Notes under the pieces: generated by a model
What the model saw: only the letters and a program-made list of their open reading frames with translations
Databases searched by the model: none
What the model was told of the DNA's origin: nothing
Origin: Escherichia coli
GTDB taxonomy: Bacteria; Pseudomonadota; Gammaproteobacteria; Enterobacterales; Enterobacteriaceae
Length of the DNA stretch: 64,000 nucleotides
Strand: one strand, 5' to 3'
Assembly (NCBI RefSeq): GCF_003334765.1
Contig: NZ_QOWT01000013.1
Program-made: the position numbers and the translations under genes
Shown here: in pieces, positions 3,085-64,000 of the stretch
Position numbering within the stretch: the stretch's first letter is position 1
Layout: each line of letters opens with the position of its first letter

Positions 3085-4932
3085 TTACCTGATTAATTGT
3101 TCCGCTTTCGATACGATTTGCGAGCTGGATCGCGCAGGCAGATCATAATTGTAAATATCTGTACGATACTGGGTACGACCATCTGCACCAACAAAGGCCG
3201 TCAGGTAGTAGAGATTCACCGGAATCGACTGCCGAATATTGACGTAACGTGTATCACCCTGCTTCAGCGCATCAGAAATACGTTTGTCATTCCAGCCTGC
3301 ATCCTGCAACAGCATATTCGCCAGATCGGAAGCTTTATTCACTCGTACACAGCCTGAGCTCAATGCGCGTGTATCACGCTTGAACAGATTGTGGTTCGGC
3401 GTGTCATGCAAATAAATGGCCTCTGAACTCGGCATATTGAATTTATAGCGCCCCAGCGAGTTCCGTGGGCCTGGAGCCTGCTGGAAGCGGAACGGTAAAT
3501 TCGAGGCCGTGATTGTAGACCAGTCAACCTGCCATGGGTCAATCGCTTCTCTGCTGTTCCAGCCGCGCATCACCGTATAGCCATGGCTTTCGAGATATCC
3601 CGGATCGTTGCGCACTTTTGGCAGAATATCTTTGCGTGCCAGAGTTGGAGGTACGTTCCACGGCGGGTTTACCACTACGTTGTTAAGGGCACTGCTCATC
3701 ATCGGCGTTTTGCGATCGGGGCGACCGACAATGACTCGCGAATCCAGCACCTGATTGCCGTTCTGATAGTAGACCAGCGAATAGGCCGGAATGTTAACCA
3801 TGATCCCGGTAGAAAGCTCTGTTGGCAGCAAGCGCAATCGCTGGATGTTGAGAGCCAACACGCCAGCACGCTGGGCGGGCGTTACGTTTAACCAGTCACG
3901 TGTTGCCGGGCCAATAGCACCATCTGCCCCCAATCCTTGCCATGCCTGAAAACGTTTAACGGCTTCCACCAGTTCATTATCGTAGGCGGCGCGAACGGCA
4001 GGCGCAGGTTTACTACGAGACGTCGTTTGCTTATCCATCGGCTTAGTTTCTGCTGTTTCAACAGTAACAGCGGATGGGCTGACTACCGCGTCAGTTGGCG
4101 TGTCATCGCCAGGTAGAGTAATTTTCGGCCCCCCGTCCAACATGCCTGTGCGTTGCAATATTTCGCGCAACGCCGGTACGTCGTTACTCCACTGCCCTGG
4201 GCGCAACGTTGCTTTGCCGGTCAGTTGGGGCCACGGTTTGGTGTCACAGAGTAAGGCCAGTAACGATTCATGCATCGCCGCATATTGCGGATGCTGCGGT
4301 GCCAGTCCTGCAACAAACGTAGGCAATTGACCTTTATCCAGCGCCAGCTGCCATTGGTTAATCACCGAGAGCGGCGGCGTTGCAAGTGCATAAGGTTTAC
4401 TGCTATATAGCCAGCGAGTGCCTTTGACCGGAATATTTGCAATGAAATGGAGATAGCCCATCATCGCATCAGAGAGCACCACGTCGCGTGCCATCCCGTT
4501 AACACCAGGATCGGTCAGTAACTCTACCCATTTATTAAACTGCGGCTGGAAACCGGCAATCGCCACCTCTGCCAGCTGTTGCTGGAAGGCTTTAACAGCA
4601 TCACGGTTTTCCCACATGGGTTGCATATCGCGTGCGGCATACAACAGTTGAAGCTGGTTAAGATAAACCGGCTTGTAACCTGCGGGTAATTGAGATTCGA
4701 TTTGCGTGCGGGCTTTTTCTGCCGCACCTTCAGGCAATGGCTGGATCCCCGCCATTATTGCCGTGGCTTGCGCCTGCGGCAGTGCCTCGCCCTGTTCACT
4801 GACAGCCACCGGGCTGTCGCCAGGGATTACTTCAGGCTCATCGGCCTGCGCATTGAACAGTGGAGCGAATGTTACGGCCAGGCACAAACTGATTGCCGAC
4901 AGCCGACGACCACACATCATATTAAGCAACAT
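3085..4932 (-). CDS. ldtD: L,D-transpeptidase LdtD (YcbB)
   Basis: 615-aa ORF with signal peptide; size and position match K-12 ycbB. Confidence 0.9.
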
Positions 4933-60007: not shown

Positions 60008-60095
60008 GGTGAGGTGTCCGAGTGGCTGAAGGAGCACGCCTGGAAAGTGTGTATACGGCAACGTATCGGGGGTTCGAATCCCCCCCTCACCGCCA
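60008..60095 (+). tRNA. serW: tRNA-Ser (anticodon GGA)
   Basis: 88-nt cloverleaf by hand: acceptor GGTGAGG/CCTCACC, anticodon loop CUGGAAA (GGA), long variable arm, T-loop GGTTCGAATCC, encoded 3' CCA. Confidence 0.93.
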
Positions 60096-60245: not shown

Positions 60246-61091
60246 CTATACTGCCAGCATGCCAGGATAGTGTCTGGCAATAATATCATTAAGCCTGTCA
60301 ACCAGTTCTGGTTTTCTGAACGTGATATGCGCGGAGCCCTTCTTAAAGTATCTGATGCTGAACATCTCATCTTCATAGCACGCTTTACCCTGAACAGACC
60401 GGATATGGTCATCCAGATGAATGATGATATTTTCCCGGTTGTCGGGGACTGGTTTGCCACTGAACAGATGCAGCATTCTTTCCAGGTCGGCAAGTCGGTC
60501 GGTCTGTTGTCCGCTGTTCAGATGAATCCCCCACCGGTCCCACCTCACCAGATTGTTGACGATAATTTTACTGCCAAATTTACAGGGTGAGTTGGTTTTG
60601 TAATTCCAGCTCAGCACTCTGAAGACGTTGATCACTCCTCGCTCAAACACGTCATCCTTATTCTGGTGCAGTTGCTCAAATGTGCTCCAAATGTTCGCTT
60701 CACTGATTTCCGGAAAGTTATCGTACTCCAGTGAGCGGTACCATGTATCACGGGCCTGCGCATCCATTAATGACAGCATCCCGGAACGTTGCATCAGGTC
60801 ACGCCAGATTTCGCGATCGAGATTGCGGGTGATGGCTTTCATTGCGGTTTCCGGTTTCTCCATGAGCCAGCAGCCGCAGCGAAAATCCTGTTTCATGGCC
60901 CAGTCCCGGGCGGTTTTACCGCCAATGCTTTCCGTCAGTACCGAGATTTCAGCCAGTTGCCGGATAAGTGTGTCGATTTGCAGCAGCGCACTCTTTCGTA
61001 CAGCCAGAATGTGGCGGATACTGGTTGAGCAGATAACGTCCGTATGTCCGTTGACCAGTTCCGGGCGGGAGATTGTGATATCTGACATCAT
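60246..61091 (-). CDS. hypothetical 281-aa island protein of unknown function (not a K-12 gene at this locus)
   Basis: Clean 281-aa ORF with AAGGA Shine-Dalgarno 8-9 nt upstream of ATGATG start; soluble, no TM or catalytic motif I can assign; may correspond to an uncharacterised family often annotated at the end of cbtA-type island modules, which I cannot verify. Confidence 0.6.
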   Translation of the reverse strand: MMSDITISRPELVNGHTDVICSTSIRHILAVRKSALLQIDTLIRQLAEISVLTESIGGKTARDWAMKQDFRCGCWLMEKPETAMKAITRNLDREIWRDLMQRSGMLSLMDAQARDTWYRSLEYDNFPEISEANIWSTFEQLHQNKDDVFERGVINVFRVLSWNYKTNSPCKFGSKIIVNNLVRWDRWGIHLNSGQQTDRLADLERMLHLFSGKPVPDNRENIIIHLDDHIRSVQGKACYEDEMFSIRYFKKGSAHITFRKPELVDRLNDIIARHYPGMLAV

Positions 61092-61112
61092 CGTTTTTCC
61101 TTTTGGTTTATA

Positions 61113-61143
61113 AACGAAAACGCCAGCCGTATTCAGGCTGGCG
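61113..61143 (-). terminator. Rho-independent terminator between the small-ORF operon and the 281-aa gene
   Basis: Minus-strand hairpin cgccagcc-tgaatac-ggctggcg followed by ttttcgttt. Confidence 0.65.
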
Positions 61144-61172
61144 TCAGTGGAATGAAGTCTGGTGAGTAAGAC

Positions 61173-61370
61173 TCACCTGTTCTGTTGCAGAAGCTGCTGT
61201 TGGCGCAGGGTACGGATATCTTCCCTGGCCTGTTCAATGCAGGGCAGCAGTGCTGCTGAATCCGTTTTATCCTCATCGGTGTCGAAGATAATCCCTGATT
61301 CGCAGTCAATATTGTCCTGCATCCACGCAATCAGAATATCCAGCGCCGTTTCTGTGGTTAATGATTTCAT
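61173..61370 (-). CDS. hypothetical small acidic protein (65 aa)
   Basis: Internal start MKSLTTETALDILIAWMQDN... of six-frame ORF 61173..61601; highly acidic (DNIDCESGIIFDTDEDKTD); start 16 nt after stop of the preceding 83-aa ORF. Confidence 0.45.
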   Translation of the reverse strand: MKSLTTETALDILIAWMQDNIDCESGIIFDTDEDKTDSAALLPCIEQAREDIRTLRQQQLLQQNR

Positions 61371-61386
61371 GTTGTGAATTTCCGGG

Positions 61387-61638
61387 TTACCAGTCGAAAG
61401 TGGGGAACCCCGGCAGACATTCTGCGCCGGCGTCCAGATGAATGAGACTGACGCCATAACGCCGGGTGAGAGTGACGACCAGACGACGGAACGTTCTTGA
61501 CAGGCCCAGGCGTTTAAGCCGCAGAACCGGGTACGACCATGCATCGGTACGTAACAGATACCAGTCGCGGGCTTTTTCCCGTACGGTGGAGGATAGCTCA
61601 TGCAGTGTATACACGGTGGTGGTGATAATTCTGCTCAT
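61387..61638 (-). CDS. hypothetical small basic protein (83 aa)
   Basis: ORF starts 18 nt downstream of the YeeT-like gene; Arg-rich; overlaps an alternative-frame 142-aa ORF so the coding frame is uncertain. Confidence 0.4.
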   Translation of the reverse strand: MSRIITTTVYTLHELSSTVREKARDWYLLRTDAWSYPVLRLKRLGLSRTFRRLVVTLTRRYGVSLIHLDAGAECLPGFPTFDW

Positions 61639-61656
61639 CTGAATGCCCTTACTGAC

Positions 61657-61878
61657 TCAGTTCAGGGTGACGTTCATCAGCCGGACATACGGGCCAAAAC
61701 TGTCCTTACGGCGTTCAGCAAACACGGCCAGCACACCGGGAATATCCTGCACTTCACGACCGGTATACGTCTCAGCACTGCCGTGCCAGCGGTACTTACC
61801 GGTGCAGAACGGAAATAGACGGGGTGCAGGATGCTGTTGGTGAATACGCATGGCTTCACCACGGGTGATAATTTTCAT
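61657..61878 (-). CDS. YeeT/DUF987-family small protein
   Basis: 73-aa ORF MKIITRGEAMRIHQQHP... matching my recollection of the YeeT-type protein that precedes cbeA/cbtA modules in CP4-like islands. Confidence 0.7.
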   Translation of the reverse strand: MKIITRGEAMRIHQQHPAPRLFPFCTGKYRWHGSAETYTGREVQDIPGVLAVFAERRKDSFGPYVRLMNVTLN

Positions 61879-61940
61879 AATGGGATACCTCTGAAGACAG
61901 AAGATAAAAGTGAAAACAGGTGTGATGTGGTTGTGACGGG

Positions 61941-62417
61941 TTAAAGCAGACCATGTTCGGCAAAGGAGAAAACCTGGTTGCCACCGACTATCAGATGGTC
62001 CGGCACCCGGATATCCACCAGGCCCAGTGCCTGTACCAGACGTTCGGTGATAAGCCGGTCTGCCTTACTGGGTGTGACTTCACCGGACGGGTGATTGTGT
62101 GCCAGTACCACGGCAGCGGCATTGTGGTACAGGGCGCGTTTAATCACTTCCCGGGGATGGACTTCCGTGCGGTTGATGGTGCCGGTGAAGAGGGTTTCAC
62201 CGGCAATCAGCTGATTCTGGTTGTTCAGATACAGCACCCGGAATTCTTCACGCTCCAGTCCCGCCATGTTCAGAATCAGCCATTCCCGTGCTGCACGGGT
62301 GGAGGTGAAGGCCACGCCGGGTTCATGAAGATGGCGGTCCAGGGTTTTCAGGGCCCGTTGAATGAGGCTGCGCTCGCCGGGCGTCATCTCTCCGGGCAGA
62401 AAGGAAAGTTGTTGCAT
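61941..62417 (-). CDS. RadC-like JAB-domain protein (YeeS/YfjY/YkfG family)
   Basis: JAMM motif HNHPSG; start chosen at MQQLSFLPGE preceded by GGAGG SD (alternative ATG at 62432 overlaps antirestriction stop). Confidence 0.85.
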   Translation of the reverse strand: MQQLSFLPGEMTPGERSLIQRALKTLDRHLHEPGVAFTSTRAAREWLILNMAGLEREEFRVLYLNNQNQLIAGETLFTGTINRTEVHPREVIKRALYHNAAAVVLAHNHPSGEVTPSKADRLITERLVQALGLVDIRVPDHLIVGGNQVFSFAEHGLL

Positions 62418-62432
62418 TGTCCCTGCCTCCAT

Positions 62433-62906
62433 TCAGTCGATGATGCGCATAATGGCGCTGCATTCCGGATGCTGCAGGGCGTAATCCCGCAGCCGGTAAT
62501 AATGAACCGTCATGGCATAATTCTCTGTACGACAGGCGTGATGGCTGTACGCCATCAGACAGGCGGCAATGCCGGCGGCTTCCGGGCTCATTTCAGCGCG
62601 GTTACCGTTCATGACGTTAAACAGCACCCATGTTTCGTCATCATCGTCATCCGGTTCGGGTGCCATAAATGCGCCACCGTTGTTCAGGGTGTACAGATTC
62701 CAGATACCACCGCAGTAGTCTTCGCACAGACGGTCCATCCAGCCGAAGACACGGGGCTCCAGGGTCACCCACTGTGGAATGAGGCCAAAGTGCTGCGGCC
62801 AGAAGCTGATGCGCTGTTCATCAGGGACGAGGGTGGCAACCAGTTGTTGCAGGTCAGTCTCCGGTGCACAGGCCGAAGAGGTGGTGTTCTGAGACAATGT
62901 TTTCAT
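62433..62906 (-). CDS. antirestriction protein (KlcA/ArdB-like, YfjX/YeeR family)
   Basis: Internal start MKTLSQNTTSS... (158 aa) within six-frame ORF 62433..63287; the 5' extension overlaps the upstream DUF932-like gene and is taken as non-coding. Confidence 0.8.
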   Translation of the reverse strand: MKTLSQNTTSSACAPETDLQQLVATLVPDEQRISFWPQHFGLIPQWVTLEPRVFGWMDRLCEDYCGGIWNLYTLNNGGAFMAPEPDDDDDETWVLFNVMNGNRAEMSPEAAGIAACLMAYSHHACRTENYAMTVHYYRLRDYALQHPECSAIMRIID

Positions 62907-63247
62907 GTATGAAATCCTTGTAATGTGAATAAATGAGAGGGAGTAAAGGTCGGGAGCTGGCAACATCACGTTCATCACTGACCGTGATGACCCGGTAATA
63001 TCAGGGATGAATGATATTCGGCTGAAATTCCGGACAGCCGTACGCGTAACCGTTCCGGTCACAGACGGATGGCCAGATGCCATTGCCTGTATACTCAGTC
63101 TGCACAGACTGATTTCTCCGGGACGGTAAAACAGACGGGTACACCAGGCGCACAGGTCATCATCAGAAATGGAACGACACCCCGGCAGCGCCTCCGGGGC
63201 GTCGGGTGATTCTGGTGCCTGAATCACGCCTTCAGGGACATGCTGCA

Positions 63248-64000
63248 TCAGCGCAGGCTCTCCAGCAGCATTTCTGCCATTACCCACAATGCGCGGTTGA
63301 GCTTAATATCGGTGTCGATGTTGTGAATGGCACGGGTGTGGATACGTTTTCCTTTTGCACTGCGGCCGGAAATCCCGCCTTTCAGCATATTCTCCTGGAT
63401 GGTCTGATAAGTACTCCACAGGTCCTTACCGTAATCCTCCCGGCGTCGTGGCGTCAGAATGTCGGCGGTGGTGACGGGCCGATGTTCGTCACCATAACGG
63501 TAAGTCAGTGCCGCCTGTGCCAGCTCCTGGCGTTCCGGTGGCGGCAGGACCAGCGACTGCATGGCATCACGCTTCTCCTCTATCCGGTCAAACACGCCCA
63601 CCACCTCGTAAGCCCCTTCGATAACTTTCTCCACTACATTTCCCCGGTGTGGAACACGCACTTCCCCCAGAGACTGGCCACAGACGCACCCGTTCTGGCA
63701 GACGAACCTGAAGTAACCCGGCAGCATCTGGTAGCTGGAGGTACCGTCATGAGAGTTGAGCAGAATAATTTCAGGGACATGTTCTCCGTTTATCTCTCCG
63801 GCCCGCCGCAGACGCAGCATGTGTTTTGTGTATCCCCGGCGGCCCGGGTCGCGCACGCGGGTCTGGCAGGCGAAGAATGGCTGAAAACCTTCCTGCTGCA
63901 GGCTTTCCAGTACGGTGATGGTGGGAATGTACGCATATCGTTTACTGCGGGAAGTATGCCGGTCTTCACCGAAAATACTGGGAACATAGTGCATCAGTTC
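63248..64000 (-). CDS. DUF932-family island protein (YafZ/YfjQ-like), 5' end probably beyond window
   Basis: ORF 63248..63994 (248 aa from first visible Met MHYVPSIFGEDRH); K-12 homologues as I recall them are about 273 aa with about 24 residues N-terminal to this motif, so likely truncated by the window edge. Confidence 0.6.
   Translation of the reverse strand, partial: ELMHYVPSIFGEDRHTSRSKRYAYIPTITVLESLQQEGFQPFFACQTRVRDPGRRGYTKHMLRLRRAGEINGEHVPEIILLNSHDGTSSYQMLPGYFRFVCQNGCVCGQSLGEVRVPHRGNVVEKVIEGAYEVVGVFDRIEEKRDAMQSLVLPPPERQELAQAALTYRYGDEHRPVTTADILTPRRREDYGKDLWSTYQTIQENMLKGGISGRSAKGKRIHTRAIHNIDTDIKLNRALWVMAEMLLESLR

Follow-up and report, generated by a model that had tools for sequence, protein, structure and literature searches.

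When two open reading frames run through the same stretch of one strand, a question has to be answered before any function is assigned: are these two genes, the halves of one broken gene, or a single frame accompanied by a spurious one? The question is raised here by a stretch of 64,000 nucleotides of Escherichia coli DNA (contig NZ_QOWT01000013.1 of assembly GCF_003334765.1; hereinafter, the window), in which an ORF of 83 aa and an ORF of 142 aa on the same strand share positions 61387-61601, the last 65 aa of the longer one being a separately annotated small gene. The first-pass annotation, made from the letters and a program-made ORF list, had left all three possibilities standing, and the coordinates of its two ORFs were reproduced exactly (Table 1). 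Since the ATG of the 142-aa ORF lies 37 nt downstream of the 83-aa ATG, its frame is +1 relative to that of the 83-aa ORF. We argue below that the locus is, in all probability, the scar of an in-frame deletion of 1,772 bp marking the loss of CbtA/CbeA, combined with a chance upstream extension of the ORF of a DUF957 gene. As such, the finding is an ordinary one, genome decay plus an ORF-calling artefact in known families; its significance is mainly a matter of annotation hygiene, and the spacer and selection data also bear on a published suggestion concerning AntiFam ANF00264 (10.64898/2026.06.09.728211).

Table 1. Features of the locus in window coordinates, and other deletion alleles discussed in the text
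Feature	Position	Strand	Remarks
tRNA-Ser(GGA), serW	60008..60095	+	island attachment site
DUF4942 gene	60246..61091	-	last gene of the island before the tRNA
Intrinsic-terminator-like hairpin	61119..61145	-	10 bp, 7 GC, then T-run; 28 nt past DUF957 stop
142-aa ORF	61173..61601	-	ATG start; from the program-made ORF list
DUF957 (Aec78-like) gene, 65 aa	61173..61370	-	own conserved ATG, SD-like GGAA
Spacer, DUF5983 stop to DUF957 start	61371..61386	-	16 nt, CCCGGAAATTCACAAC
5' extension of 142-aa ORF	61371..61601	-	77 codons, spurious; +1 frame of the chimeric ORF
83-aa ORF	61387..61638	-	ATG start; from the program-made ORF list
3' donor segment	61387..61560	-	last 174 nt of the DUF5983 (Aec77/YeeW-like) gene, codons 106-162 and TAA, native frame
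Deletion junction	61559..61560	-	2-bp TA microhomology
5' donor segment	61559..61638	-	first 80 nt, codons 1-27 (MSRIITTTVYTLHELSSTVREKARDWY), of the 227-aa island gene
DUF987 (YeeT-like) gene	61657..61878	-	intact upstream neighbour; stop 18 nt upstream of the chimera ATG
PE164 (L005)			cbeA 5' fragment fused to DUF5983 3' fragment
Strain 165 (L006)			truncated YeeU-family gene abutting DUF5983
CUVET21-37 (L004)			DUF987 followed directly by shortened DUF5983

The island and the parent genes

At this locus, a CP4-44-like genomic island of E. coli is integrated at serW, and the genes in question lie at its tRNA-proximal end. The core flank, with up to 99.9% identity to E. coli chromosomes, consists of cydC, cydD, aat and infA, followed by a tRNA-Ser(GGA) gene that is recognized as serW because of its placement after infA. 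The island begins directly after this tRNA gene and carries, on the minus strand, genes for DUF932, an antirestriction protein, RadC/JAB and DUF987, then the scar region, DUF957 and DUF4942. In intact islands, the order is RadC, DUF987, a gene of 227 aa (missing from some islands), cbeA (antitoxin), cbtA (toxin), DUF5983 (162 aa), DUF957 and DUF4942. The island in the window thus resembles CP4-44, CP4-6 and CP4-57, which carry the CbtA/CbeA (YeeV/YeeU) type IV module, being of the same island type, with RadC/YeeS and DUF987/YeeT upstream, and DUF5983, DUF957 and DUF4942 downstream. Unlike these islands, it contains neither a CbtA-family toxin gene nor a CbeA/YeeU-family antitoxin gene between DUF987 and DUF957, and the 83-aa ORF lies precisely where their deletion left its scar. 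RadC, DUF987, the scar and DUF957 may constitute one transcription unit that ends at the terminator-like hairpin; the hairpin precedes DUF4942.

The 227-aa gene appears in RefSeq as "hypothetical protein" or "antitoxin of toxin-antitoxin stability system"; its sole family match is phrog_5162 (PHROG, function unknown), and it had no match in Pfam, NCBIfam, PADLOC or PDB sequences. DUF5983 was always found downstream of CbtA in a survey published in mBio in 2023 (PMC10790755). Its C-terminal domain, at 35-48% identity, is also carried by numerous enterobacterial plasmids that lack CbtA/CbeA (L023-L028, from Pectobacterium, Erwinia, Salmonella, Pantoea, Edwardsiella and Serratia), where the neighbours are DUF932, DUF1281, DUF1419 or an N-6 DNA methylase; therefore, the domain is not tied to the toxin-antitoxin module. 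A Foldseek search of the AF2 model of DUF5983 against the PDB returned nothing better than E=3.4. Among 10 E. coli loci, both pS and pN in DUF5983 codons 106-162 are approximately half of those in codons 1-105 (pS 0.14 vs 0.28), and pN/pS is 0.29 in the 3' part vs 0.32 in the 5' part; since both measures are halved and their ratio is unchanged, mosaic ancestry of the 3' end or gene conversion across island copies is suggested, rather than extra constraint.

A fusion of two island genes

The composite nature of the 83-aa ORF can be seen at the level of DNA. In a megablast search with positions 61100-61950, the match split at query positions 460/461 into one piece that covered DUF957 and the 3' end of DUF5983, and another that covered DUF987 together with the first part of the gene named "antitoxin of TA stability system"; with blastn, the match stops at window position 61560. 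A base-level comparison was made with the nearest relative, strain FXCREC180 (L001), as the intact reference for the junction. The 5' donor segment is identical in 77 of its 80 nt to the 5' end of the 227-aa gene (L001 positions 4732-4811), and the 3' donor segment is identical to L001 DUF5983 in 174 nt out of 174, including the native stop; in protein terms, the residues of the 83-aa product past 27 (LLRTDAW...PTFDW) are DUF5983 residues 107-162 (56 codons). The TA at the junction falls inside a Tyr codon that both parents share, TAC in the 227-aa gene and TAT in DUF5983. The junction is in frame, and the protein translations agree that the product is a fusion of two different genes. As compared to L001, 1,772 bp are absent, namely codons 28-227 of the 227-aa gene, the whole of cbeA and cbtA, and codons 1-105 of DUF5983. 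A single deletion by illegitimate recombination at the TA microhomology fused the 227-aa gene at its codon 27 with DUF5983 at codon 106, and the same event took out the entire CbtA/CbeA type IV toxin-antitoxin module, a further example of toxin and antitoxin being lost together in a single deletion.

A recombination guided by homology between the parents, which would have restored the domain, was considered and rejected. MAFFT placed the 27-aa N-terminus opposite the DUF5983 stretch that is missing, where some residues look alike; the hhalign probability between the parents was 0.5% (E=0.12), in a comparison for which the alignment was biased by inclusion of the chimera.

What remains of DUF5983 in the chimera can be described in some detail. 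Relative to DUF5983 proper (PF19419; Aec77/YeeW-like; in CP4-44-type islands, the gene 3' of cbtA), the chimera is 100% identical in DNA over its last 56 codons and the stop, whereas residues 1-105 of 162 are gone and an unrelated N-terminus of 27 aa from another gene stands in their place. Residues 20-83 match positions 33-90 of the 90-position Pfam model of the DUF5983 C-terminal domain (PF19419, E=4.5e-9), so that the 83-aa ORF encodes a fragment of a family member and not a complete member; scans of the 83-, 142- and 65-aa products against NCBIfam and PADLOC gave no matches. Its position is not that of DUF5983 either: instead of lying directly 3' of cbtA with a 4-nt overlap, it follows DUF987, cbtA having been deleted. 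In an alignment of 18 homologues and the window's chimera, the lost part of DUF5983 carries 6 of the 18 invariant or nearly invariant columns (H74, I75, D79, L86, W98 and I99), and the first half of the domain (STAHIT..DNA.L..LS....EWI) is absent from the chimera, with unrelated sequence in its place. The AF2 model of the full DUF5983 is confident only for residues ~65-162, the C-terminal domain (pLDDT ~90), with the elements E67-71, H77-87, E99-101, E105-109, H116-123, H127-140 and E144-148. According to this model, the chimera has lost strands 67-71 and 99-101 (2 of the 4 predicted strands) and helix 77-87 (one of the 3 predicted helices); it keeps the C-terminal 57 residues of a domain of ~95, that is, about one third to 40% of the domain is gone.

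The start of the 83-aa ORF is that of the 227-aa gene, with the native SD (AAGGG, dG -4.9 kcal/mol), the ATG and the promoter-proximal position, and, since all three are retained, the ORF would probably be translated. Judging from the truncation of the DUF5983 domain, the product is most likely a functionless remnant. It might instead be a mini-protein maintained by selection, either because it keeps a partner-binding half of DUF5983 or because translation is carried on to within 16 nt of DUF957, which would preserve coupling and avoid polarity. The in-frame fusion with its native SD and ATG speaks for this idea, as does the kept segment (YLLRxDAW..PVLRLKRLGLS...FDW), which belongs to the conserved C-terminal domain and is the sole part that aligns in the plasmid homologues, and so does the occurrence of the identical protein on no fewer than 176 contigs and in two places on the chromosome, serW and serX. 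We nevertheless deem it improbable: one junction in three would be in frame by chance, the identical sequences represent a recent clonal allele and have no power to detect selection, the ~40% of the domain that is lost includes the six invariant or nearly invariant columns, and other strains carry out-of-register or different deletions at this place that are annotated by PGAP as pseudogenes.

The junction of the window was absent from 5,426 complete E. coli genomes searched by blastn. When the allele was sought in draft assemblies by exact-protein look-up, the 83-aa protein was found on the contigs just mentioned (295 indexed blocks in draft E. coli assemblies) under the name "hypothetical protein [Escherichia coli]", and the retrieved loci with the deletion (L016-L021) were 99.1-100% identical to the window. 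The deleted island adjoins either infA/aat/cydC (serW) or ghrA/ycdX (serX), and the presence of the same deleted allele at two tRNA-Ser sites suggests that the island was duplicated or re-integrated after the deletion. Complete E. coli genomes show at least three more deletions, each independent, in which cbtA has been lost from between DUF987 and DUF957, namely those of PE164, strain 165 and CUVET21-37 (Table 1), which indicates that decay of the module is recurrent. These alleles resemble that of the window in the removal of cbtA and in the fused or truncated remnants of cbeA and DUF5983 between DUF987 and DUF957; they differ in their breakpoints, and several of their remnants have been flagged as pseudogenes by PGAP, whereas that of the window is called a "hypothetical protein". 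For the 83-aa "hypothetical protein" of many draft E. coli genomes, a better label would be DUF5983 remnant, or fusion pseudogene marking the loss of CbtA/CbeA.

The DUF957 gene and its upstream extension

The other ORF contains a gene, albeit a shorter one than the ORF itself. DUF957 is a genuine stand-alone small gene that starts at the ATG at 61370. Its exact 65-aa sequence belongs to a 90% cluster of 1,209 members named "DUF957 domain-containing protein", which places it in the family (the Pfam-A copy used had no model matching DUF957). Among 13 sequences, pN/pS is 0.16 in the DUF957 frame vs 0.93 and 2.58 in the other two frames; the ATG and the SD-like GGAA/AGGAA are kept in every locus examined, the position and the start codon being conserved in 14 loci; and in 15 out of 15 homologous loci DUF957 stands apart as a gene with a start of its own.

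The distance between DUF5983 and DUF957 was compared in L001-L015 and L022. Among 14 E. coli copies, the spacer is 11 nt long in 10, which puts DUF957 in relative frame +2, and 16 nt long in four, as in the window, which puts it in relative frame +1; a Klebsiella plasmid copy has a spacer of 29 nt (relative frame +2). With spacer length thus polymorphic, the two genes have no fixed frame relation, and the variable spacer, the conserved ATG and SD and the low pN/pS together identify DUF957 as a stand-alone gene and not as a frameshift product of DUF5983.

The 77 codons that precede DUF957 in the 142-aa ORF, including ICYVPMHGR and FCGLNAWACQER, have none of these attributes. Over 14 homologous DUF5983 3' ends, the DUF5983 frame has a pN/pS of 0.20, vs 1.79 in the +1 frame and 1.46 in the remaining one, and 27 of the 45 variable columns fall on the third codon position of DUF5983. 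The ATG at 61601 belongs to the segment from the 227-aa gene, across the junction from the DUF5983 remnant; it is present there only because of the deletion junction, and it has no SD. The calculated energy of the anti-SD duplex is +0.6 kcal/mol for this start, as compared to -4.9 for the 83-aa start and -3.5 for that of DUF957. The frame is not even continuous in the nearest relative. L001 has CCCGTAAATTC as its 16-nt spacer and the window has CCCGGAAATTC, in which the G at 61382 makes a GAA in the 142-aa frame out of what is TAA in L001, so that the L001 frame is closed three codons before the DUF957 ATG. In copies with the 11-nt spacer, just 6-15 codons are open upstream of DUF957, and in the Klebsiella plasmid copy 12; further afield, the +1 frame of the last 57 DUF5983 codons contains 1-8 stops in the plasmid homologues from Klebsiella, Pectobacterium, Erwinia, Salmonella, Pantoea, Edwardsiella and Serratia. 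Hence, of the three first-pass options it is the spurious frame that holds, namely the 77-codon extension, which is non-coding. The +1 frame of the DUF5983 remnant happens to be free of stops, and an ORF finder, which continues past the spacer because the window reads GAA and not TAA, runs back to the fortuitous ATG.

The checks that had been proposed with the first-pass annotation proved unequal in value. Alignment with intact homologues left only one frame clearly conserved, that of DUF5983, an outcome named in advance as one that would speak against both frames being real. Scoring of ribosome-binding sites separated the starts well, as noted above. Codon usage separated the frames poorly: the log-odds relative to core-gene usage were -0.06 bits/codon in the DUF5983 frame vs -0.21, a weak preference with all three frames negative, so that, unlike codon usage, it is the pattern of substitutions that is decisive between the frames. 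On the deletion-allele contigs displayed, gene callers list the 83-aa and the 65-aa products separately, and the 142-aa product has been called once among ~15 billion proteins (EIG71409.1, Escherichia sp. 4_1_40B); in annotation, the DUF957 gene of 65 aa should be kept and the 142-aa call dropped.

The open +1 frame as a candidate coding frame

Does the open +1 frame call for an explanation other than chance? By itself, a run of this length is commonplace: among 110 alternative frames taken on the same strand inside the stop-to-stop ORFs of at least 200 codons in this window, 42 have a stop-free run of at least 71 codons. Synonymous-codon resampling put the post-hoc P that the +1 frame is free of stops throughout the overlap at 0.0001-0.001. 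Frames taken as controls from ordinary ORFs of the window behave comparably, with 6/112 reaching a post-hoc P of 1/300 or less and 3/112 a Pmax of 0.01 or less. Since the region was chosen for being open and the control frames match it, the small P is an ascertainment effect and not a signal.

A certain depletion of stops is seen, however, in the full-length DUF5983 genes of the E. coli clade, in which the +1 frame has 4-6 stops vs 8-10 expected from synonymous permutation (Pmax 0.0005-0.047), with stop-free runs of 96-127 of the 162 codons (L001, L003, L007, L009, L013, L015); in these genes, Leu and Val codons that end in TG or TA are avoided before codons that start with A. No such depletion is found in the Klebsiella homologue (10 stops, P = 0.18) or in the plasmid homologues. 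The stop-poor frame is attributed to lineage-specific chance, and we regard it as a minor feature that is only partly explained. As evidence of a hidden gene, the openness was rejected, being matched by control frames and not conserved outside the E. coli clade. One consequence of the scarcity of stops is that rare alleles with a 1-nt frameshift can yield fusion ORFs of 233 aa that consist of DUF5983, a +1 segment and DUF957. Such are the P0019/P0020 fusions, with which the DUF5983+ANF00264 proteins discussed in a preprint (10.64898/2026.06.09.728211) can be grouped. They pass through the same open +1 frame and the 16-nt GAA spacer, and from ICYVPMHGR onward their amino acids are the same as those of the window's 142-aa ORF. 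They differ in that the +1 frame is entered through a 1-nt indel in an otherwise complete DUF5983, whereas in the 142-aa ORF it is entered only notionally, from the fortuitous ATG in the 227-aa-gene segment.

Could ribosomes enter this frame by design? AntiFam ANF00264, fused to DUF5983 or located just 3' of it next to cbtA/cbeA, has been proposed in a preprint to be possibly a real protein made via programmed frameshifting (10.64898/2026.06.09.728211). ANF00264 is probably DUF957, given its described position and the lack of a matching model in the Pfam-A copy used. A programmed frameshift from DUF5983 into DUF957, with the open +1 frame as the functional route, could draw on the proteins reported in that preprint and on the stop-poor +1 frame of the E. 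coli clade. Yet the shift needed would be +1 in copies with the 16-nt spacer and -1/+2 in those with 11 and 29 nt, no conserved X_XXY_YYZ heptamer or homopolymer run was found, purifying selection begins at the ATG of DUF957, which has its own conserved start and SD, and the fused proteins inspected are 1-nt frameshift alleles present on just 1-2 contigs. Neither of the hallmarks of a programmed site, a fixed frame relation and a conserved slippery sequence, is thus in evidence, and we give this reading very little credence. Because the frame relation varies, a conserved slippery site is lacking, and DUF957 has its own start and its own purifying selection, the data argue against a frameshift mechanism for ANF00264 and in favour of a stand-alone DUF957 gene. 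A related notion, equally hard to credit, is that in islands with 16-nt spacers the stop-poor frame is kept by ribosome shifting or internal initiation that would produce a DUF5983-DUF957 fusion or an N-extended DUF957; if this were true, the 142-aa ORF would be the sign of an actual alternative product associated with the CbtA/CbeA neighbourhood, along the lines of the ANF00264 hypothesis.

Still less can be said for a genuine overlapping gene pair, in which the 142-aa ORF would be translated from the ATG at 61601 as an N-extended DUF957 on top of the 83-aa gene. The frame is indeed open in the window, as it is for 103 and 134 codons upstream of DUF957 in two other copies with the 16-nt spacer; stops are scarce in this frame across the E. 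coli clade, and one annotation pipeline did, once, call the product. But the start codon exists only by virtue of the deletion junction and has no SD, the +1 frame shows a pN/pS of 1.79 and a TAA in the L001 spacer, most copies place DUF957 in the other frame, stops interrupt the +1 frame in the Klebsiella and plasmid homologues, and the 3' part of DUF5983 is under no added constraint. Neither purifying selection in both frames nor a second frame open across homologues was found, and the pair entertained in the first-pass annotation is thereby refuted, with only the faintest chance left to it. Much the same holds for a pseudogene in which the two frames are the halves of one ancestral gene broken by a point indel: such alleles do exist elsewhere (P0019/P0020, with DUF5983 residues 1-92, the +1 frame and DUF957), but here the DUF5983-derived part is identical to the intact gene down to its native stop, two separate genes are the majority state among the loci examined, and the discontinuity is not an indel between the frames but a 1,772-bp deletion further upstream, which makes this reading exceedingly unlikely. 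An ancestral gene was damaged, as the first pass had supposed, yet not by a frameshift, since the 83-aa ORF keeps the native frame and stop of DUF5983; and a single longer ancestral ORF does not fit a locus where all homologues examined have DUF957 as a gene of its own and the 83-aa ORF is a deletion fusion of two genes.

Extended and antisense ORFs are found elsewhere in this island as well. The GTG-started ORF of 284 aa at 62433-63287 (minus strand) corresponds to an antirestriction (KlcA/ArdB-like) gene of ~157 aa that starts with MKTLSQNTT...; its long upstream extension reaches into the 3' end of the DUF932 gene (63248..63994) and is an artefact of the same type as the 142-aa ORF. In the RadC/JAB gene (61941-62432, minus strand), the first ATG, at 62432, has no SD (+0.4 kcal/mol), whereas the ATG at 62417 (MQQLSF...) is preceded by a strong SD (-9.3 kcal/mol) and gives the length of 158 aa called in relatives, so that the start at 62417 is the likelier of the two. 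On the opposite strand, an ORF of 319 aa (61953-62912, plus strand) faces the RadC and antirestriction genes, and one of 161 aa (60628-61113, plus strand) faces DUF4942; these antisense ORFs show how frequent long spurious ORFs are in this island.
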